Shown here: one piece after another, positions 1,442 through 10,851 of the stretch
How positions within the stretch are numbered: position 1 is the stretch's first letter
Layout of the letters: each line of letters opens with the position of its first letter
Sequence record: OQ411014.1
DNA from: Escherichia phage EJP2
Length of the DNA stretch: 64,000 nucleotides
Reading direction: 5' to 3' (one strand)
Notes under the pieces: model-generated
Databases searched by the model: none
What the model was told of the DNA's origin: nothing
Seen by the model: only the letters and a program-made list of their open reading frames with translations
Position numbers and translations under genes: made by a program

Positions 1442-2071
1442 ATGACAACTCACGTTAGGTATTATATTGCATATAATGGAAGACCAGTTCGTTCTATTGG
1501 ATTAGATCTTGAGCCAGTAATGTCTGTACAGACTAATCTATACTTCAGTACTGAAGAAGAAGCAGACTCTTTCATTATGACTAGGATTGCAACTGCGTCC
1601 ACTACACTTTATCATATTCATTTTGATTGTATTGATAAGTACTCAATCGTCAAAGAAATTGTTCAGTTGGAACCGTGCAGTACTAAAACTAATTATATGC
1701 GAAACTATACTCTAACTTGGTTGCGATTACTCGACCAGGATATCTGTACTGATTCTATGATTTCCACTACTATACGTGCGTTCGTCATGCGTGGGTTTAG
1801 TACATCAGGATTGGATTTAGAAGAAGTGAAAAACTTGATTTTGGGTAATCCAAAACTTCAAAAAACCATTGACAAACTTATTCCAAAGCATATAATCTCT
1901 AATATTGAAAATTACATGCAAGATGGTTTAGTCAATGCTCCGGTGGAAGAGCTTGAATTCTTGAATCTAACAATTTCAGATGAAATGAAATTTGATCTTG
2001 ACTTCGAAGAACTCTTCCCTTACAATAAGTTCAAACCAACAAAATGGGAAAATCATGGAACTAGTAACTGA
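1442..2071 (+). CDS. hypothetical protein
   Basis: 209-aa ORF. No recognisable motifs. Confidence 0.6.
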   Translation: MTTHVRYYIAYNGRPVRSIGLDLEPVMSVQTNLYFSTEEEADSFIMTRIATASTTLYHIHFDCIDKYSIVKEIVQLEPCSTKTNYMRNYTLTWLRLLDQDICTDSMISTTIRAFVMRGFSTSGLDLEEVKNLILGNPKLQKTIDKLIPKHIISNIENYMQDGLVNAPVEELEFLNLTISDEMKFDLDFEELFPYNKFKPTKWENHGTSN

Positions 2072-3308
2072 AGGTCGCAAACTCGTAACAATTCGTAAAA
2101 TCAATGCAATTGATGCAATTGAAGGTGCAGATCTGATTGTCAAAGCAACTGTTGACGGTTGGGATGTAGTTGTGAAGAAAGATGAATTCAACGTTGGGGA
2201 TTACTGTGTATTCTTCGAAATCGATTCATTCCTTCCAGTACAGACACCACAATTCGCATTCTTGGCGGGTTCAGGCTGTAAACTCGATGAACAGAATGTA
2301 GAACGTTTCCGTCTACGTACTCGTAAACTTCGCGGGGTAGTCTCTCAAGGCTTGGCTCTACCAGTATCTCTATTTGAGGCAGTACTGGAAGCTATTGACG
2401 AAGCTGGTGGTCATCACCCTGACTCGTACACTACAACGGCACGTGAAGAACTCCTAGTGAGTCTAGAGGCGAATCGTGAAGGCATTGAGCAATTCCTCAA
2501 TGTAACCAAATACGAGCGTCCTGATGAGCGTAATGGCGGTACTGGTGCATCTAAGTGCAAAGCTGCTGGTAACTTCCCTATCGTCATTCCTAAGACTGAT
2601 GAAGACCGTATTCAGAACGTAATGGGTAAGTACTCTCAGACTATGAAAGGTGTTGCATTCCGTAAATCACTGAAACTGGATGGTTCTAGCCAGACAATTG
2701 CATTCATTAGCAATCCTGATTTCTTTGTAGATAAAGTTGATGAAGAAGTCCGTGCATGGAATGAAGAGACTCAAGAACTTGAAGTTGTTGAAGTGAAGCC
2801 ATACCCGTTCCAATGGGAAGATGGTCAGGTAGCAGTATGTTCTCGCAATCTTGCGTTGAAATTTGATGCTGAATCTCACTTCTGGAAAGCAGCACTGAAA
2901 GATGATATTCCAGCACGTCTGAAAGAGTACTGTGTTCGTAATGACCGCCAACTAGCACTACAAGGCGAAGTAATGGGTCCTGGTATCCAAGGGAACCGTG
3001 AAGAACTGACCGAACATCAATTCTACGTATTCCGTATTTGGGATATTGATAATAAATGTTTCCTTGATGATGGTGATTTCTTGACACTATCTGCACTACT
3101 GGGATTGACTACAGTACCGCAAGGTGATATCGTGTACTTCTTCGATGAATACACTTCTATCAAAGAAGCATTGGCATCTGCTGACCACGCATCTATCAAG
3201 CATAAGATCGCGGAAGGCGATGTGTTCAAAAGTGTATCTAAAGTGAATGGTGTTACTGTACACTTCAAGGTAATCAACAACAAATTCTTGCTCAAATGTG
3301 AGGACTAA
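2055..3308 (+). CDS. putative ATP-dependent RNA ligase (N-terminal OB-like domain plus nucleotidyltransferase domain)
   Basis: Covalent nucleotidyltransferase motif I KxDG (SLKLDGSS) and a motif-IV-like QGEVMG. N-terminal GADLIVKATVDGWDVVV...VGDYCVFFEIDSFLP resembles a tRNA-binding OB fold. Start moved from 1992 to ATG 2055, which has an RBS. Confidence 0.5.
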   Translation: MELVTEGRKLVTIRKINAIDAIEGADLIVKATVDGWDVVVKKDEFNVGDYCVFFEIDSFLPVQTPQFAFLAGSGCKLDEQNVERFRLRTRKLRGVVSQGLALPVSLFEAVLEAIDEAGGHHPDSYTTTAREELLVSLEANREGIEQFLNVTKYERPDERNGGTGASKCKAAGNFPIVIPKTDEDRIQNVMGKYSQTMKGVAFRKSLKLDGSSQTIAFISNPDFFVDKVDEEVRAWNEETQELEVVEVKPYPFQWEDGQVAVCSRNLALKFDAESHFWKAALKDDIPARLKEYCVRNDRQLALQGEVMGPGIQGNREELTEHQFYVFRIWDIDNKCFLDDGDFLTLSALLGLTTVPQGDIVYFFDEYTSIKEALASADHASIKHKIAEGDVFKSVSKVNGVTVHFKVINNKFLLKCED

Positions 3309-3916
3309 TGAAGAAAAAATTCGGCGTGGCGATAAATGACGCCGACTATGCTGTAACATCATATGACGATGCTGGTAAACGCCAGCATTGTCCCTTTTAT
3401 CGAAGATGGGCGAGTATGATAAATCGATGTTATGGTGATGTTGGTGCAACATACACTGAATCCTATGTATGTGATGAATGGTTAACCTTCTCTAACTTTA
3501 AGAGATGGATGGAAACACAAAAATGGGAAGGTATGGAGTTGGACAAAGATTTACTTTATATCAACAATAAGGAATATGGCCCAAATACATGTTTATTTTT
3601 ACCAAAGGTTATTAATTCACTATTCGTTGATAGTAAATCGAGCCGTGGTACTAATCCGATTGGTGTATCTTTTGAAAAACGTCGATTGAAATATGAAGCA
3701 TATATATCAATTGATAATAAGAAAAAACATCTTGGATATTTTGATAACCCAATTGATGCACATGTAAAATGGCAACATGCAAAATTGAAAGTATTGGAAG
3801 ATTTCATGAAAACGTTATCTGACCCTATACATATACAAATTGTAGATTTGCGAATCAACAAGCTAAAGAATGATATACAATCAAATATCATAACCGAATC
3901 TTTACATCATTTCTAA
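3308..3916 (+). CDS. AP2-domain protein, homing-endonuclease-like
   Basis: N-terminal YRRWASMINRCY...YVCDEWLTFSNFKRWM motif typical of phage free-standing endonuclease-like genes. C-terminal GVSFEKRRLKYEAYISIDNKKKHLGYFDNPIDAHVKW fits an AP2 DNA-binding domain. TAATG overlap with the upstream gene. Confidence 0.45.
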   Translation: MKKKFGVAINDADYAVTSYDDAGKRQHCPFYRRWASMINRCYGDVGATYTESYVCDEWLTFSNFKRWMETQKWEGMELDKDLLYINNKEYGPNTCLFLPKVINSLFVDSKSSRGTNPIGVSFEKRRLKYEAYISIDNKKKHLGYFDNPIDAHVKWQHAKLKVLEDFMKTLSDPIHIQIVDLRINKLKNDIQSNIITESLHHF

Positions 3917-4143: not shown

Positions 4144-4172
4144 TTGACAATCAAACAGTTTCGAGATAGACT
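4144..4172 (+). promoter_or_regulatory. sigma70-type promoter
   Basis: TTGACA 4144-4149, 17-bp spacer, TAGACT 4167-4172. Upstream of the LysM-lysozyme gene. Confidence 0.4.
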
Positions 4173-4279
4173 AGTGTTTCACTAGAGCTATGTAGAAAGT
4201 CCAAAAGAGGCTTTGTGCAAACGGAGCCTAATAACTCCTGTTGCTGAAGCTACACAATAATTAGCAAATAGGAGGAATT

Positions 4280-5200
4280 GTGCATAAAGCGATACAAGAA
4301 CTCAAAACTCGTACTAAGGTTGTTCTATTAGTAAGTTTTCTGTTGCTTGCCGCTGCTATTGGATTATATGGTTTATATCAAAATGATCGTACTACATCAT
4401 CGGGTTCAGAAGAATCAGTAGTACAAAATCAAATTCAAAAGCAACCAGTTACAACGTTACCAATGCAAAAGGCAACAGTACTGGAAAGCAGGAAGCAATA
4501 CGTAGTGCAAGCAGGTGATAGTTATTGGATCATCACTAATAAGATGAAACCTAATAACGTTGAACCACTTGAGTATATGGCAGTACTGAAGAAAGTGAAT
4601 AACAATGTTCAGTTACACACTGCTGTACCAATCTACGTGCCGAATGACAATGATTTGATGCATGTTACATTACCAGATGTGGTTGTCAAATTTGACGTAT
4701 ACGACGATATTGTCGTAAACCACATCAAGGAAGCAGAAGGTTCGAAGGAAGCACAGTCTAATAACAAGAGACGTCTTCTGGGTGGTAAAGTAGGTCCGTC
4801 ATTTAGTAAAAATCGTTTCTATCCTTACAAGGACACGAAAGGAAATTATACTATTGGGTACGGTCATTATATTGGTCCCAAAGAGTCCGAAGCGAGAAAG
4901 TATCGTTTTGGGTTGACCGAACGTGAAGCACACAAACTGTTGATTCAGGATATGAAAAAGACTCGTGAAGATTTCATATTGTTGCTGAAGCGTAAAAATG
5001 CAGTGAATCTAAGTGTTGAACAGCAACGTGTTTTATACGAAATGGCATTCAACATGGGCGTTGACAAACTGAGTACATTTGGTAAACTATGGAAAAGTGT
5101 AGAACGTCAAAATGAAAAGAAGTTCAAAAAAGAAATTGAGAACTCATTGTGGTACAGACAAGTAGGCAACCGTGCTGAAATGTTACTGAGTTCTCTATAA
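4280..5200 (+). CDS. membrane-anchored LysM plus T4-lysozyme-like (GH24) muramidase
   Basis: GTG start with AGGAGG RBS. N-terminal TM helix VVLLVSFLLLAAAIGLYGLY, LysM-like YVVQAGDSYWII, and C-terminal YKDTKGNYTIGYGH...SLWYRQVGNRAEML matching the T4 lysozyme core. Confidence 0.7.
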   Translation: MHKAIQELKTRTKVVLLVSFLLLAAAIGLYGLYQNDRTTSSGSEESVVQNQIQKQPVTTLPMQKATVLESRKQYVVQAGDSYWIITNKMKPNNVEPLEYMAVLKKVNNNVQLHTAVPIYVPNDNDLMHVTLPDVVVKFDVYDDIVVNHIKEAEGSKEAQSNNKRRLLGGKVGPSFSKNRFYPYKDTKGNYTIGYGHYIGPKESEARKYRFGLTEREAHKLLIQDMKKTREDFILLLKRKNAVNLSVEQQRVLYEMAFNMGVDKLSTFGKLWKSVERQNEKKFKKEIENSLWYRQVGNRAEMLLSSL

Positions 5201-5216
5201 CAGAGAGGTGTTATAT

Positions 5217-5549
5217 ATGCTAAATGTAAACGTTCAAGGTAATGTAGAAATCACTGACGCAATTCATGAACATATTCTGGCTGAAGCGGATCATCTAGAA
5301 AAGTACAGTACTGATAAAGTACTGGAACTTGATGTTCACGTGAAAAAAGAACACAAAACTCAATACACTGTAACAATCGTTGGTAACGGCAAATCCAGTA
5401 CTGCCAACGCTGCTGATTTATACAAAGCAATCACTGACTCCTTTGGTAAAATGGATAAAGTGCTTGGTAAAGATAAGAGTGTAAAAATCAGTCGCCGTAA
5501 CAATCCTGTTCATCCTGTTGAAATTGACTTGACAGAAGACGAAGAGTAA
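5217..5549 (+). CDS. hpf: ribosome hibernation promoting factor / RaiA (YfiA) homolog
   Basis: NVEITDAIHEHILAEADHLEKY...DLYKAITDSFGKMDKVLGKDK aligns along its length with the bacterial HPF/YfiA family. ATG at 5217 with AGAGAGGTG RBS. Confidence 0.75.
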   Translation: MLNVNVQGNVEITDAIHEHILAEADHLEKYSTDKVLELDVHVKKEHKTQYTVTIVGNGKSSTANAADLYKAITDSFGKMDKVLGKDKSVKISRRNNPVHPVEIDLTEDEE

Positions 5550-5561
5550 TACATAATACAA

Positions 5562-5586
5562 GGAAGCCATATGGCTTCCTTTTTTA
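5562..5586 (+). terminator. rho-independent terminator
   Basis: Hairpin GGAAGCCATATGGCTTCC followed by a T-run. Confidence 0.6.
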
Positions 5587-5590
5587 ATAT

Positions 5591-6139
5591 ATGGAGAACA
5601 CAATGAGTGAATTTACAAAGGTAATCAATAAGGTTCGTAGTTTCACTGCTGAAGATTGGCACAGAACCAAACATGGCTCGTGGGAATCTTTTGACAAATA
5701 TAGTTTTCGTTCAGCAGATTATGAAATTATGTCCGAAGATATGGAAGATTTTGTTCTAGGTGATAGTACTCCATATCGTGAAGTACTCCCACTAATCGGT
5801 CATGTTGTTTGGCACGCTGAAGAGATGTCATATAGTAAAGATCTGCACTCAATTCAAATTATTGTTGGGTCTTCTAAAAGGAAAGGTGATATCACACTAT
5901 ATGTGCGTAAAGATTTGGTGTATCTGGTAAATGACACATTACGATACACGGAAAATCCCGAAGACTGCCCTACAGAATCGCAGTACTTCCAAATCTTACT
6001 TGAACAACCTGAATTTCCTGACATGTCCTACGATGAGTTCAAATCTTTGTTCACACTGTATGATCATTTGAACGAGGTAATCACAAAAGGTAAAACAATG
6101 ACATTTGCTGGGAGTAGATATCATGATTACAATGCTTGA
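5591..6139 (+). CDS. hypothetical protein
   Basis: 182-aa ORF (alternative start at 5603). Follows the terminator at 5562-5586. Confidence 0.55.
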   Translation: MENTMSEFTKVINKVRSFTAEDWHRTKHGSWESFDKYSFRSADYEIMSEDMEDFVLGDSTPYREVLPLIGHVVWHAEEMSYSKDLHSIQIIVGSSKRKGDITLYVRKDLVYLVNDTLRYTENPEDCPTESQYFQILLEQPEFPDMSYDEFKSLFTLYDHLNEVITKGKTMTFAGSRYHDYNA

Positions 6140-6242
6140 AGAAGACTGGGGCGTAGGTGGGGATTACAATCCATTTGAACCTGAAGAAAAAGAAGAGTCC
6201 CCATCGTGGTGGGATTGGGTTCGTGGATTATTCGGGCGATAA

Positions 6243-6657
6243 TATGAAAATAGAACCTGAACGCATTGCTAAACTAAAACAACTCATGGAACATACGTTA
6301 GAACTTCCACGAGAAAATCTAACATCATTCACAACCAAACCTTGGTGTACAGGTTGGTGGGTTAGTGATTATGTTTATGCTGATTATGACCACAACGAGC
6401 TAATGATTTGTGTACTGAAAAGTGACGTGGTGTGGGGACAGACTGGTAAGTTATACATAAGTTCAAATCACGTTCAATTGATAAAAACTGCACCACCGTT
6501 TACACTTAGCGTTCCGAGAATCAGTACTGAAGAAGAGTATTTTCAACAGTCAACACTTCATGATTTGACAAATTTGGACTTGGATTTCTTTTTGACTTGT
6601 AATAAACTCTATTCACTATGTTGCAGTTTACACACGATTGGGGATACAGATGTATAG
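6243..6657 (+). CDS. paralog-family protein 1 (conserved STEEE-YFQ-LHDL-LDLDFF C-terminus)
   Basis: First of four tandem paralogs. C-terminal ISTEEEYFQQSTLHDLTNLDLDFFL. Start set at ATG 6243 by alignment with paralog N-termini. Confidence 0.55.
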
Positions 6658-7042
6658 TCGTATGCTAAAAGAACTGAATGAACTTCTGGTGAATGTATTG
6701 GGATGGCCTGCTGATAATTACAGATACATCAGAGAACGTGATTTAGGAACCATCAGAGATTGCTGGGTGAATAAATTCACATTCGCAGAAGATAATTGTG
6801 GTGATGTTTCGGTATCTTTGTCTAAATGTTCGGATATTGATTTTTGTTACATCAAGATATTGGAAGATGCAGTGGAGTTCCGAAAAGGATTGTCTACGAT
6901 TTGGAGTTACCCACGATTGAGTACTGAAGAAGAGTTTTTTCAATTATCAGTACTGCATGATACATCTGGCTTGGATTTGGACTTCTTTTTGAATTGCACT
7001 AAACTATACAACCTGGGCAAAATTGCACTAATAGAGGGATAA
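6650..7042 (+). CDS. paralog-family protein 2
   Basis: C-terminal LSTEEEFFQLSVLHDTSGLDLDFFL. ATG at 6650 with GGGGA RBS. Overlaps the upstream stop. Confidence 0.55.
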   Translation: MYSRMLKELNELLVNVLGWPADNYRYIRERDLGTIRDCWVNKFTFAEDNCGDVSVSLSKCSDIDFCYIKILEDAVEFRKGLSTIWSYPRLSTEEEFFQLSVLHDTSGLDLDFFLNCTKLYNLGKIALIEG

Positions 7043-7043
7043 C

Positions 7044-7454
7044 ATGGCTATGAATCCAAATAAAGTAGTACAGCTAAGAGATTTACTACCGTACATTTTA
7101 GAACTTCCTGAGAAAGCACATAAACGATTGTCCTTCCGATATGAAGTTGGTGGTGGGTGGATCAATGACTTTGTGAATGTATTTTTCATCAATGACAAGC
7201 TCACAGTTTCCGTGACTGCTGATGTGGAGTTTAAAACTGGTTACTTCACTATAAGCGAAAATACAGTTGAATATTACACTTCCAATAAAGGTGGTGCGAA
7301 ACCGGAAATAACGTACAAACTTGTCAGTACTGAAGAAGAGCATTTCCAGGAGTCACTAATTCATGATTTAACACTTTTAGATCTGGACTTCTTCCTGAAC
7401 TGTGCTAAAATATACGCACTATGTGATGATTTGATCACGATTGATTATTATTGA
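7044..7454 (+). CDS. paralog-family protein 3
   Basis: C-terminal VSTEEEHFQESLIHDLTLLDLDFFL. GAGGGA RBS. Confidence 0.6.
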   Translation: MAMNPNKVVQLRDLLPYILELPEKAHKRLSFRYEVGGGWINDFVNVFFINDKLTVSVTADVEFKTGYFTISENTVEYYTSNKGGAKPEITYKLVSTEEEHFQESLIHDLTLLDLDFFLNCAKIYALCDDLITIDYY

Positions 7455-7462
7455 GGATTATA

Positions 7463-7864
7463 ATGTACAATAGTGTAATGATGCAGCATTTCACTACAAT
7501 GATTGGTGCTGCCATGAATAGTCCTAAACTGAAAACGTTACGCATCATTGATGGTGCGTGCTGGATTACAGAAAATGCTTTTATCTGGATGCATGAGAGT
7601 CGTGATAAATTAACTATCACAATAAAGCCATCATTTAGTTTAGAAGAGATACTACAACATAGTAGTATTGATATCAAACATGATAGTATAGATATTCGTA
7701 ACTCCCATAACCCAAAAGGTATTAATATCCCACGTATTAGTACTGAAGAAGAGTACTTTCAACAAAGTACTATTCATGATTTATCAAATTTCAACCTTGA
7801 TTTTTTCAAACAATGTGCAGTACTGTTCGATAAAACATGGGATCAACTTACATGGTGTAAGTAG
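7463..7864 (+). CDS. paralog-family protein 4
   Basis: C-terminal ISTEEEYFQQSTIHDLSNFNLDFF. ATG at 7463 with GAGGA RBS. Confidence 0.55.
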   Translation: MYNSVMMQHFTTMIGAAMNSPKLKTLRIIDGACWITENAFIWMHESRDKLTITIKPSFSLEEILQHSSIDIKHDSIDIRNSHNPKGINIPRISTEEEYFQQSTIHDLSNFNLDFFKQCAVLFDKTWDQLTWCK

Positions 7865-7891: not shown

Positions 7892-9001
7892 ATGAAAAAG
7901 TATTTGGTTGGTGGTTTTGTACGCGATAAGCTACTTGGCTTACGTCCTAAAGACAAAGATTATGTCTTGGTAGGAGCGACCCCGCGTGATATTCAGTACT
8001 TAAAAAGTATTGGATATGAGCAGGTTGGTGCAGACTTCCCTGTGTTCTTGGATAAGGACGGCAATGAGCACGCACTTGCCCGTACTGAACGCAAGGTGTC
8101 TGATGGCTATAATGGCTTTGAAGTGAATACACAAGGTGTAACGCTTCAGGAAGACTTGTATCGTCGTGATTTGACCATCAATGCGATTGCCTTTGACCCA
8201 CAGTTAAAGGTACACGTAGACCCATATGGTGGCAAAGAAGACCTAAAGAACAAAGTACTGCGACATGTATCTGAACATTTTGAAGAAGATCCAGTACGTA
8301 TTCTGCGTATCGCTCGTTTCAGTGCACGTTATTCGGACTTTACAGTACATGAAAGTACTGAATCGTTGATTCGCCGTATGATCAATCGTGGCGATATTTC
8401 TGAATTGACTAAAGAGCGAGTGTACGTAGAATTCGAGAAAGCATTCTCCGAAGAAGAGCCAGTTATCTTCCTGGAGAAGCTATCCAAATGGGGAGCCATG
8501 AGTAAGTTGATTCCTGGTAATCCTGAAAGTACTTACAAGACTATTGAATACATTAGTTCCAATTGTACTTTAGCGTATAAGGATTTTTACTTGTGGGCTG
8601 AACTAATTGGTTCTAATGAAGTACAAAAAGATGGAGTCTTTGGTCAGGTCAAGCTACCATCGCGTTACTCTAAGTTCAGTGCGTATGTATGCAAGCACGC
8701 GGATAGTATCAAGAATTTCCGTAAGAGCACCCCAGAAGAAATGGTAAATATTCTTACTGAGATGAGCGTAAAGAACAACGGTGGTGAAGAGTACTTGTAC
8801 AAAGTACTGGAATACTTTATCCTACGTAAAGAGATTGATTTGGACTTAGAAGATTTGATTATTCGAGTTTATGATCGCTTTGAGAATACGGTCATTGGTA
8901 ATATTGATCAGATGCTTAAAGATGGAACTATCACTTCACGTGAAATTCCTTCTTTTGTGAAAGAGAAGCGAATCGCTGAGGTGGAAAAAATCTTCAAATA
9001 A
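7892..9001 (+). CDS. cca: CCA-adding tRNA nucleotidyltransferase (class II head domain, no HD domain)
   Basis: N-terminal LVGGFVRDKLLG...DKDYVLVGATP...GADFPVFL...ALARTERK...RRDLTINAIA closely matches bacterial CCA-adding enzymes. At 369 aa it lacks the C-terminal HD domain. Confidence 0.9.
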   Translation: MKKYLVGGFVRDKLLGLRPKDKDYVLVGATPRDIQYLKSIGYEQVGADFPVFLDKDGNEHALARTERKVSDGYNGFEVNTQGVTLQEDLYRRDLTINAIAFDPQLKVHVDPYGGKEDLKNKVLRHVSEHFEEDPVRILRIARFSARYSDFTVHESTESLIRRMINRGDISELTKERVYVEFEKAFSEEEPVIFLEKLSKWGAMSKLIPGNPESTYKTIEYISSNCTLAYKDFYLWAELIGSNEVQKDGVFGQVKLPSRYSKFSAYVCKHADSIKNFRKSTPEEMVNILTEMSVKNNGGEEYLYKVLEYFILRKEIDLDLEDLIIRVYDRFENTVIGNIDQMLKDGTITSREIPSFVKEKRIAEVEKIFK

Positions 9002-9002
9002 A

Positions 9003-9032
9003 TTGAGATATTTTCGAAAAAAGTGATATATT
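9003..9032 (+). promoter_or_regulatory. early promoter (TTGAGA -35, TGn TATATT)
   Basis: TTGAGA 9003-9008, TG 9024-9025, TATATT 9027-9032. Confidence 0.45.
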
Positions 9033-9064
9033 ATAAGTATCTGAGATATGTAAGAGATAAAAAT

Positions 9065-9742
9065 ATGCGATATACATGCGGGATAATATTTTATCGAAAC
9101 GGTCAGATACTTGTAGGTCACACGACTGGTCAGAGTCATTGGGATTTACCGAAAGGTAAGACTGAAGGTTCTGAGACATTCAAGGAAGCGGCAGTTCGTG
9201 AATGCTATGAAGAAACTGGATACAGTATTGATGAACGAGATTTACTGTACTTAGGTGATGTATCATACAGAAAGGGAAAGCGTTTAGTACTGTTCTTTTA
9301 CACAGCCAAGACGAAACCAATTGCTGAAGAGTTGCAATGTATCAGTACTTACACGAATAAGTACGGTATTGTACGTCCAGAGTTGGACAAATTCAAGTAC
9401 ATAGACATTGAGGACTGTGAACTCTACTTGACTGAACGGATGTGTGATAGTATAATCAAAGCTATTACACAATTTGATAAAAAGACAAATAAAAAGGAAG
9501 ATAATATGAAAGTTGTAATTTATGGTCGTAAAGCTGGTTGTAAGTGGTGTACTACTGCTAAAGAAGTTTGTGAAACTAACTCAATTGATTTTGATTTCAT
9601 TGATTTAGATGAAGCTGGTATTGATGGTGCTAAACTCGCTGAAATTTGTGGCACTCCAGTACGTACTGTTCCACAAATTTTCGTTGACGATCAACACATT
9701 GGTGGTTGTACTGAGTTTATTTCGCACCTATCCAAAATGTAA
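9065..9742 (+). CDS. Nudix hydrolase joined in-frame to a glutaredoxin-like domain
   Basis: Complete Nudix box GKTEGSETFKEAAVRECYEETGY. C-terminal 78 aa is glutaredoxin/NrdH-like (CKWC, TVPQIFVDDQHIGG) and has its own internal ATG at 9506 with an AAGGAAG RBS, but no stop separates the two domains. Confidence 0.7.
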   Translation: MRYTCGIIFYRNGQILVGHTTGQSHWDLPKGKTEGSETFKEAAVRECYEETGYSIDERDLLYLGDVSYRKGKRLVLFFYTAKTKPIAEELQCISTYTNKYGIVRPELDKFKYIDIEDCELYLTERMCDSIIKAITQFDKKTNKKEDNMKVVIYGRKAGCKWCTTAKEVCETNSIDFDFIDLDEAGIDGAKLAEICGTPVRTVPQIFVDDQHIGGCTEFISHLSKM

Positions 9743-10350: not shown

Positions 10351-10851
10351 ATGAATAACATCACACATCACGTAGGAAATCTTTTCAACTTATATAAAGA
10401 AGTAGGTGAAGAGAATAACAGTACTGATAGTGAAGTAATGAACGTTATTATTCATGGTTGTAACGCACAAGGTCGTATGGGTTCTGGTTTTGCTAAAGAA
10501 TTACGTGCACGTTTTCCTGGTGCTTATAACGAATATAAAAAACAGTACGAAAGTACTGGACTTCAGTTAGGAAAGAACGTATACTACTTACCACATGATG
10601 AAAACACCCTTATCGTAAATGCTATCACTCAAGAGTATTACGGATATGATGGTAAGAAGTACGTTAGTTATGACGCAATTGATGATTGTATGATTGAACT
10701 AAATACTCTACTTTCTGGAATGGATGGAAATATCCAAATTCACTTCCCAAAAATCGGAGCCGATTTAGGTGGTGGTAATTGGGAAGTAATCAAAAGTATC
10801 ATTGAAACACGGGTAATCTTTGGTACTAAGCATCTATATACCCTAGTATAA
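10351..10851 (+). CDS. macro domain protein, TARG1/OARD1-like ADP-ribosyl hydrolase
   Basis: HGCNAQGRMGSGFAKELRARFPG and PKIGADLGGGNWEVIKSIIE match the RMGAGIA and RIGCGLDRLQWENV segments of TARG1-type macro domains. Confidence 0.7.
   Translation: MNNITHHVGNLFNLYKEVGEENNSTDSEVMNVIIHGCNAQGRMGSGFAKELRARFPGAYNEYKKQYESTGLQLGKNVYYLPHDENTLIVNAITQEYYGYDGKKYVSYDAIDDCMIELNTLLSGMDGNIQIHFPKIGADLGGGNWEVIKSIIETRVIFGTKHLYTLV

Follow-up and report, generated by a model that had tools for sequence, protein, structure and literature searches.

Among the closest described relatives of the protein reported here are the ribosome hibernation factors of the HPF/YfiA (S30AE) family. RaiA is defined as HPF with an additional 18-residue C-terminal extension, which is believed to run as far as the RMF site and to interfere with the formation of 100S ribosomes; RaiA stabilises 70S ribosomes, and hibernation factors are a block to both YbeY and RNase R (PMC7913689). 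Phages are known to encode homologues of HPF as well. They have been listed in GAP32 and in rV5-like phages, where they were speculated to compete with the host factors and thereby prevent the formation of ribosome dimers (Mizuno et al. 2019). Here we describe a family member from Escherichia phage EJP2, encoded in a stretch of 64,000 nucleotides of sequence record OQ411014.1 (the whole of which is referred to as the window). Judged from its sequence, the 110-residue product, called the HPF-like protein below, is RaiA-type and not short-HPF-type in architecture, with a single domain, an Arg-Arg pair and a tail that is acidic and predicted to be disordered. Our preferred explanation, to which we give about an even chance, is that it is a phage-adapted RaiA-type factor that would hold vacant host ribosomes as protected 70S particles and block the RMF/HPF route to 100S.

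Phage HPFs have been known since at least 2019, and the jumbo-phage copies are already annotated. RefSeq names the orthologues of 121Q and PBECO4 'HPF/RaiA family ribosome-associated protein', and across the RefSeq and GenBank entries of 121Q, PBECO4, UE-S1 and phAPEC6 the names refer to the HPF/RaiA family, a ribosome-associated inhibitor or a sigma-54 modulation protein. We found no functional study of the jumbo-phage HPF clade in the literature, and neither HPF nor RaiA is mentioned in a large comparative review of jumbo phages that covers the neighbouring RNA-repair genes. New here are the assignment to the RaiA type, the conservation of the acidic end, and the finding that the jumbo-phage clade is old and monophyletic, as well as a probable transcription unit shared with a lysozyme gene behind a conserved leader. 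If the protein acts on ribosomes, large lytic phages would manage the state of the host ribosome pool, beyond supplying tRNAs and repair enzymes, which would bear on phage replication in starved or stationary cells and on defences that shut down translation.

Family membership and predicted structure

An earlier note, made from the DNA letters alone, had named the product a phage-encoded HPF/RaiA homolog, and comparison with curated hidden Markov models (HMMs), set beforehand as a test that could refute this, agreed with the identification. PF02482 (Ribosomal_S30AE) matched residues 5-87 with 48.5 bits (E=1.5e-12; gathering cut-off 23.7 bits), and TIGR00741 (HPF/YfiA) matched with 41.9 bits, marginally above its cut-off of 40.9 bits. 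Both models were also matched by 16 of 16 clade members. Among the PHROG families, one match is annotated as S30EA and a stronger one, spanning the full length, is unannotated. The protein is a member of the HPF/YfiA (S30AE) family, with a match far beyond chance. The motifs quoted in the earlier note were found at residues 9-13 (NVEIT), 27-30 (LEKY), 67-72 (DLYKAI) and 85-87 (KDK). Its statement that the product aligns with HPF along the full length was right for the domain itself and went too far for the C-terminus: the family models span only residues ~3-93, which leaves the last ~17 residues as a tail beyond the domain.

The gene (Table 1) ends with TAA at 5547-5549. A program-made list of open reading frames (ORFs) opens it at GTG 5208 instead of ATG 5217; we take the ATG as the start, because all orthologues begin with ML(N/K). 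The Shine-Dalgarno (SD) sequence is predicted to lie in a loop, and no significant structure was predicted in the ribosome-binding region (z=0.01).

An AlphaFold2 model was built from an alignment of 13 sequences. In this predicted structure, the strands at residues 2-8, 36-46, 49-56 and 59-65 and the helices at residues 14-30 and 68-85 follow the β-α-β-β-β-α order that the earlier note had expected of an HPF fold, and the second condition that would have refuted the identification, a different predicted fold, did not arise either. The mean predicted local distance difference test (pLDDT) score was 75, with 72-89 in the core blocks, while residues 89-110 scored below 50 and are predicted to be disordered. 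When the model was compared with the PDB using Foldseek, ranks 1-36 were all HPF, YfiA/pY or the N-terminal domains of long HPFs, many of them solved on ribosomes (E from 2.8e-7 to ~1e-3; target-normalised TM-score at most 0.76), and weak matches to double-stranded RNA-binding domains started at rank 38. The top matches among viral predicted structures were the 'ribosomal subunit interface protein' of PBECO4 and the S30EA protein of GAP32.

The long HPFs of Firmicutes and Actinobacteria and the plastid pY/PSRP1 share the fold of their N-terminal domain with the phage protein, and the best Foldseek match was Listeria HPF. In the Pfam scan, PF02482 alone was detected in the 110 residues and no second domain was found. 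Since the phage protein has no C-terminal dimerisation domain, a long-HPF function, with 100S particles formed by self-dimerisation, is excluded.

A RaiA-type C-terminal tail

In the multiple alignment, R93-R94 of the phage protein align with R95/R96 of RaiA, and the Arg-Arg pair is followed by 16 residues in the phage protein versus 17 in RaiA. Counted from the end of Escherichia coli HPF (H95), the extension is 17 residues long in the phage protein versus 18 in RaiA. The residues equivalent to R95/R96 in YfiA of Klebsiella quasipneumoniae make strong contacts to 16S rRNA and uS7 (2025 structural preprint). Both tails end in acidic clusters, IDLTEDEE in the phage protein and FVEEVEEE in RaiA. 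Within the phage clade, D104, E109 and E110 do not vary and L105 and T106 hardly do, the linker before them is variable with insertions and deletions, and the acidic end is retained down to ~25-35% identity. The same succession of a basic pair and an acidic end was observed in Munch (DLTESDE), Hallingskeid (DLTEDNE), GAP32 (STEDNEE) and Kaldavass; a (K/R)R pair is present in every aligned member of the jumbo-phage clade except XaC1, and reads KR in GAP32 and Kaldavass. Many cellular relatives of 110-125 residues likewise have acidic ends, and the acidic end is therefore a trait of the tail-bearing subtype.

Apart from the tail, the phage protein shares with E. coli RaiA the family, the predicted fold, a single domain of similar length (110 versus 113 residues), an aromatic residue at position 30 and the equivalents of K80 and K87. 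It differs in that the two are only ~20-26% identical in structural alignments, the phage protein falls outside the RaiA clade, the R83 position holds a Lys (and is non-basic in most clade members) and the K91 equivalent is lost. The settings also differ: the phage copy lies in the lysozyme unit of a lytic jumbo phage, whereas RaiA is a stress-induced host gene.

Phage lineage, phylogeny and selection

The window contains tail sheath, tube and baseplate genes. Its structural region is 77% identical at the nucleotide level to Hallingskeid, an Erwinia phage, and ~74% identical to the Asteriusvirus coliphages (PBECO4, phAPEC6 and others), and no nucleotide match above 77% was found in a 2025 phage collection. 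The source is a jumbo myovirus of the ~350-kb type, kin of Hallingskeid and Asteriusvirus (121Q, PBECO4), which bears out the phage origin stated in the earlier note.

Orthologues of the HPF-like protein are found in 121Q (gp533), PBECO4, phAPEC6 and UE-S1 of Asteriusvirus, in Munch, 7t3 and fENko-Kae01, and in GAP32 (gp183). They share with the window copy the tail motif and the place after the lysozyme gene and before the gene of the CCA-adding enzyme; unlike them, the window copy has a Lys where a Thr stands at the R83 position. The identities are 59-66% to Asteriusvirus, 50% to Hallingskeid and ~34% to the Munch group. Word-indexed searches with the protein and with a clade profile reached 12-14 proteins, all of the phage clade, and no cellular HPF. 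An exhaustive profile search of 1.84 billion representatives, by which cellular HPFs were reached as well, gave only 62 proteins at E<=1e-3, and the phage clade was tight and distant from the rest. In a neighbour-joining distance tree of 94 columns, a weak method by which the deeper nodes are not resolved, the 22 sequences from jumbo phages (window clade, Hallingskeid, Munch group, metagenomic relatives) formed one clade with 86% bootstrap, and the placement of XaC1 in it was without support (2%). As far as these comparisons reach, the gene is an old, vertically inherited phage gene and not a recent capture from a host.

One search product, P0015, was dropped from the analyses as a repetitive protein of doubtful origin with 29 matched stretches. 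It is a predicted protein of 1605 residues with ~29 tandem copies of a 53-residue unit matching profile positions 45-81 (E=1.4e-34); it closes with a proline- and arginine-rich tail that is unrelated, and the protein may be an artefact of assembly or gene calling.

The HPFs of the rV5 type (Vequintavirinae), with about a hundred records, are also phage PF02482 proteins (~105 residues) and include the only phage HPF tested experimentally. They form a separate and far more HPF-like clade, nearer to gammaproteobacterial HPF. In contrast to the protein described here, rV5 HPF keeps R83, its tail is basic (KGKGKGKVKIDFGE) and not acidic, and its gene lies among small early-type ORFs with a sigma70 promoter of its own.

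An identical HPF-like protein was found in 38 blocks of public assemblies. Across four strain variants, the gene has 8 variable sites, and all eight are third-position and synonymous, indicating purifying selection. The idea that the ORF arose by chance, or is a captured host gene in decay or without function, is contradicted by this pattern, by a position and length conserved across genera, by an HMM E-value of 1e-12 and by the presence of a terminator and of an SD sequence of its own. In addition, the product is made in a related phage, as six peptides of the fENko-Kae01 orthologue were detected by mass spectrometry in a phage-particle proteome. We consider the idea effectively refuted, with next to no chance of being right. 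Packaging of the protein into the virion was considered and rejected: thymidine kinase, RNA ligase, the CCA-adding enzyme and Nudix were detected in the same fENko-Kae01 preparation, and because it held many non-structural enzymes, the detection is taken as a sign of expression and not of packaging.

Proposed action on the host ribosome

The ribosome-contact positions of YfiA were taken from the 2025 structural preprint and mapped by multiple alignment. The contacts kept in the phage protein are Y30 (aromatic), K29, T51 (T53 in YfiA), K78 (K80), K85 (K87) and K87 (K89), and K81 stands at the R83 position as a conservative change. The equivalents of K91 and K93 are absent in its branch, and those of K26, K91 and K93 are lost in the Asteriusvirus-like branch.

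With these contacts, the HPF-like protein would bind vacant host 30S or 70S particles at the decoding centre, over the positions of the A- and P-site tRNAs and the mRNA, making contact through the conserved aromatic residue 30 and the lysines along helix 2. Its tail, judged by its length and position, would head to the mRNA exit and the RMF pocket, as in RaiA. Idle ribosomes would be kept as inactive and intact 70S monomers, with protection of their 16S rRNA against RNases (YbeY and RNase R, for instance), and the path by which host RMF and HPF lead to 100S dimers would be blocked. A phage with a long cycle might thereby preserve a finite ribosome pool that can quickly be reused. The roles suggested in the earlier note, namely stabilising or silencing host ribosomes or shielding them from degradation, overlap with this explanation and seem reasonable.

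A number of observations weigh against a RaiA-type action on ribosomes. The RaiA equivalog model NF007654 is missed widely (21.2 bits; cut-off 158), and the short-HPF equivalog NF007780, although missed as well (27.2 bits; cut-off 125), scores slightly higher. In the tree, the jumbo-phage clade does not group with RaiA and falls within neither the RaiA nor the E. coli HPF group, so convergence may account for its RaiA-like tail. Arg83 has been described as the single essential contact to m4C1402 (2025 structural preprint), and the other aligned clade members have Thr, Val, Ser, Glu or His at its position. The phage protein is acidic, with a net charge of -6. The HPF of rV5 was expressed, yet it was absent from salt-washed 70S and 100S ribosomes, and it left ribosome profiles and 100S levels unchanged (Mizuno et al. 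2019). Ribosome binding by the jumbo-phage HPFs is itself deduced from homologues, and the benefit to the phage is not obvious, because a block of the decoding site also stops phage translation.

The equivalog scores bear on whether the protein is instead short-HPF-like, acting with the RMF of the host to turn 70S ribosomes into 100S dimers and so to shut down host translation. E. coli short HPF (YhbH) has the family, the fold and the presumed binding site in common with the phage protein and gives its best E. coli pairwise score (E=1.9e-5, ~32% identity over 85-95 residues); among PDB sequences, the HPFs of Bacillus subtilis and E. coli were both matched at E=1.9e-5, versus ~0.03 for RaiA. 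The two equivalog models were rejected as a means of telling HPF from RaiA, since they fail to separate them and both scores are far under the cut-offs. Short HPF ends at residue 95, has no tail and needs RMF for 100S formation, whereas the 17-residue tail of the phage protein is foreign to it and is thought to be RMF-excluding, its equivalent in RaiA being thought to clash with RMF. Together with the position in the tree next to neither HPF nor RaiA and the unchanged 100S levels upon expression of rV5 HPF, these differences make a short-HPF-like action very unlikely.

The loss of Arg83 and the negative charge would fit with a neofunctionalised module for binding RNA or protein, in which the fold was kept and the decoding site is no longer the target. 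Candidate ligands would be phage mRNA, tRNA, the operon's own leader or a partner docked via the acidic C-terminal motif. The failure to find rV5 HPF in ribosomes, the long separation of the clade from cellular HPF and RaiA, the lysines lost in the Asteriusvirus-like branch and the resemblance of the fold to double-stranded RNA-binding domains point the same way, and the terminal DLTEDEE is better conserved than the linker preceding it, as a docking motif would be. Such a change of target nevertheless appears unlikely. Most lysines of helix 2, aromatic residue 30 and the RaiA-type Arg-Arg pair are kept, the strong structural matches are all ribosome-bound hibernation factors, and RaiA itself has an acidic tail. 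Position 83 also varies in cellular homologues (T, S, L), and since some of these are without Arg83 as well, a different residue there weakens and does not exclude ribosome binding. We retain the RaiA-type action on vacant 70S ribosomes as the preferred explanation.

Genomic context

The features of the locus are listed in Table 1.

Table 1. Positions of the HPF-like gene, its parts and the neighbouring features in the window.
Feature	Position	Strand	Details and evidence
HPF/YfiA-family coding sequence	5217..5549	+	110 residues and stop; PF02482, TIGR00741, AlphaFold2 fold, Foldseek
Core S30AE/HPF domain	5217..5480	+	residues 1-88; AlphaFold2 pLDDT 72-89; contact positions kept
RaiA-type C-terminal extension	5481..5546	+	residues 89-110; basic stretch with R93-R94, variable linker, acidic end
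Acidic end DLTEDEE	5526-5546	+	residues 104-110 of the HPF-like protein
Shine-Dalgarno sequence GAGAGG of the HPF-like gene	5203..5208	+	8 nucleotides upstream of the ATG; read from the sequence
Intrinsic terminator	5560..5587	+	9-bp GC-rich stem, then TTTTTT; closes the lysozyme/HPF-like unit
Membrane-anchored T4-type lysozyme	4280..5200	+	306 residues; PF00959; phrog_15410 over the full length
Promoter-like site with conserved structured leader	4145..4279	+	promoter scan, conservation, hairpin prediction
Promoter-like site TTGACA-17-TAGACT	4145-4173	+	sigma70-like; promoter scan 10/12
Invariant leader hairpin	4192-4219	+	GUAgAAAGUC...GRCUUUgUGC; consensus prediction
Hairpin pairing the lysozyme SD sequence	~4237-4275	+	pairing probability 1.00 versus 0.54 in shuffles (window)
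RNA ligase	1992..3308	+	PHA02142 OB domain and RNA_ligase; Pfam
CCA-adding tRNA nucleotidyltransferase	7892..9001	+	PF01743, PF12627; annotated so in 121Q, Hallingskeid and XaC1
Nudix hydrolase-glutaredoxin fusion	9023..9742	+	239 residues; PF00293 and PF00462 in one ORF
Macro domain protein, DarG-like	10351..10851	+	PF01661; PADLOC DarG E=9.7e-13

The lysozyme, which also has weaker matches to tail lysozyme and endolysin, is separated from the HPF-like gene by a gap of 16 nucleotides without a terminator. The terminator that follows the HPF-like gene has a predicted folding energy of -14.4 kcal/mol (z=-4.0; 0 of 200 shuffles equally stable), and Munch has a terminator annotated at the equivalent place. 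We infer that the lysozyme and HPF-like genes make up one transcription unit, running from the promoter-like site to this strong terminator.

The order of lysozyme, HPF-like gene, small ORFs, CCA-adding enzyme, Nudix, glutaredoxin and macro domain gene was also found in 121Q, Munch and XaC1, and in a metagenomic relative with no more than ~37% identity in the HPF-like protein. Hallingskeid agrees through the Nudix gene, where the stretch compared ends. The succession of lysozyme and HPF gene occurs in 121Q, Munch, Hallingskeid, XaC1, GAP32, Kaldavass and the locus L006, and is the shared part in GAP32 and Kaldavass. The synteny spans phages of Escherichia, Salmonella, Erwinia, Cronobacter and Xanthomonas. 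The gap between the two genes takes insertions, namely a 208-residue gene in one strain variant, a similar one of 205 residues in Munch and a pair of HNH endonuclease genes in GAP32; by locus, insertions are seen at L002 2362-2988, L009 4378-4995 and L013 3553-4166. Because some genomes carry such insertions, the adjacency is common and not obligatory. Scans of the whole window for tRNA genes and Rfam families found nothing, and with the tRNA scan empty, the HPF-like gene is not beside a tRNA cluster here.

RNA ligase, the CCA-adding enzyme, Nudix and the macro domain protein fit a theme of maintaining the translation apparatus. DarG is the antitoxin of the ADP-ribosyltransferase DarT, and the macro domain protein is a candidate counter-defence enzyme in the conserved block. 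In this setting, the HPF-like protein might act as a counter-defence shield alongside the RNA-repair genes: bound to the ribosome, it would occupy the decoding centre and the 3' region of 16S rRNA and keep out effectors of abortive infection, such as A-site mRNA interferases and rRNases, as well as hibernation or ribosome degradation triggered by defence. Hibernation factors are known to occlude RNase sites (PMC7913689), the jumbo-phage review treats neighbours of this kind as reversing the host's attacks on the machinery of translation, and the block of the relatives adds a DUF2828 'RNA-binding protein' and a weak match to 2H phosphoesterases. However, the argument is one of guilt by association in phages whose gene order is conserved genome-wide, no defence system is known to be blocked by a protein of the HPF family, and ribosome binding would be as putative as in the preferred explanation. 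PADLOC gave no match for the HPF-like protein, which had no match to an anti-defence family, or for the five hypothetical ORFs downstream (5591-7864). A shield against host defence is quite unlikely to be the role of the protein.

Several other features of the neighbourhood were observed. Nudix and glutaredoxin, which form one ORF in the window, are encoded by two neighbouring genes in 121Q, Munch, XaC1 and L006, and the 'nudix hydrolase' of Hallingskeid is similarly long. The true start of the RNA ligase is probably an internal ATG, the enzyme having 417 residues in the gene calls of near-identical contigs of close relatives. Between the RNA ligase gene and a 64-residue ORF lies an HNH homing endonuclease gene (3308-3916, + strand; phrog_953, E=2.4e-79). 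The gene calls of the four contigs L002-L005, which encode an identical HPF-like protein, are without it and have a 63-residue ORF directly after the RNA ligase, so this strain seems to have acquired it recently as a mobile insertion. Between the HPF-like gene and that of the CCA-adding enzyme there are four tandem paralogous ORFs of 134-166 residues (6157-7864, + strand), in which the C-terminal motif STEEE.FQ.S..HD...(L/F)(D/N)LDFF..C is invariant. A weak match to phrog_21500 was seen for three of them; none had a PADLOC match, and the first, the only one scanned with Pfam, had no match there.

Lysozyme leader and expression

The hexamers of the promoter-like site upstream of the lysozyme gene are identical in Hallingskeid, and a similar pair is found in 121Q. 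The lysozyme leader of ~110 nucleotides (4170-4279; core 4192-4222) is 97% identical to that of Hallingskeid versus ~77% for the coding flanks. The window has a single copy of it, and it belongs to no Rfam family; a permissive Rfam scan gave only a chance match to a snoRNA. The sequence of its invariant hairpin is GTAGAAAGTCC-N3-5-GNGRCTTTGTGCA. RNAalifold recovered this 5' hairpin only, without compensatory changes. Since the downstream region of the leader aligns too poorly, the hairpin sequestering the lysozyme SD sequence was tested sequence by sequence, and it exceeded the shuffled controls in 9 of the 16 leaders, those of 121Q, Munch and the L006 branch not being among them. The leader hairpin resembles the translational masking of T4 gene e. 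By this analogy, the leader may be a translational control element like that of gene e.

Such a leader enters into a more elaborate picture, in which the jumbo-phage HPF-like proteins would be more than simple hibernation factors, namely a dedicated viral 'ribosome custodian', bound weakly and reversibly, within a conserved island that maintains the translation apparatus together with the RNA ligase, CCA-adding enzyme, Nudix and DarG-like macro genes. The protein would be produced early from the sigma70-type promoter while the structured leader holds the lysozyme cistron untranslated. The binding is supposed to be weak and reversible because the Arg83 contact is lost, and phage translation would not be halted meanwhile. 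The acidic DLTEDEE might mimic mRNA or RMF and exclude host RMF/HPF, RNases and defence toxins. We regard this combination as distinctly unlikely in its entirety.

The leader was also found at L001 4974, L006 6986, L009 3326, L010 3982, L013 2501 and L014 2501, and at ~11 IMG/VR loci among L016-L030. A conserved TTTCGAA-TAG upstream of it was considered as a promoter element and rejected: in GAP32, for which coordinates of the upstream gene are annotated, it is the 3' end and stop codon of that gene, and it is probably a gene end in the other lineages too. The best sigma70-like match of the region, TTGACA-17-CATAAT (11/12), lies at 5529-5557 on the + strand, across the final codons of the HPF-like gene and immediately ahead of the terminator stem; it could be due to chance or be a promoter for the downstream gene at 5591.

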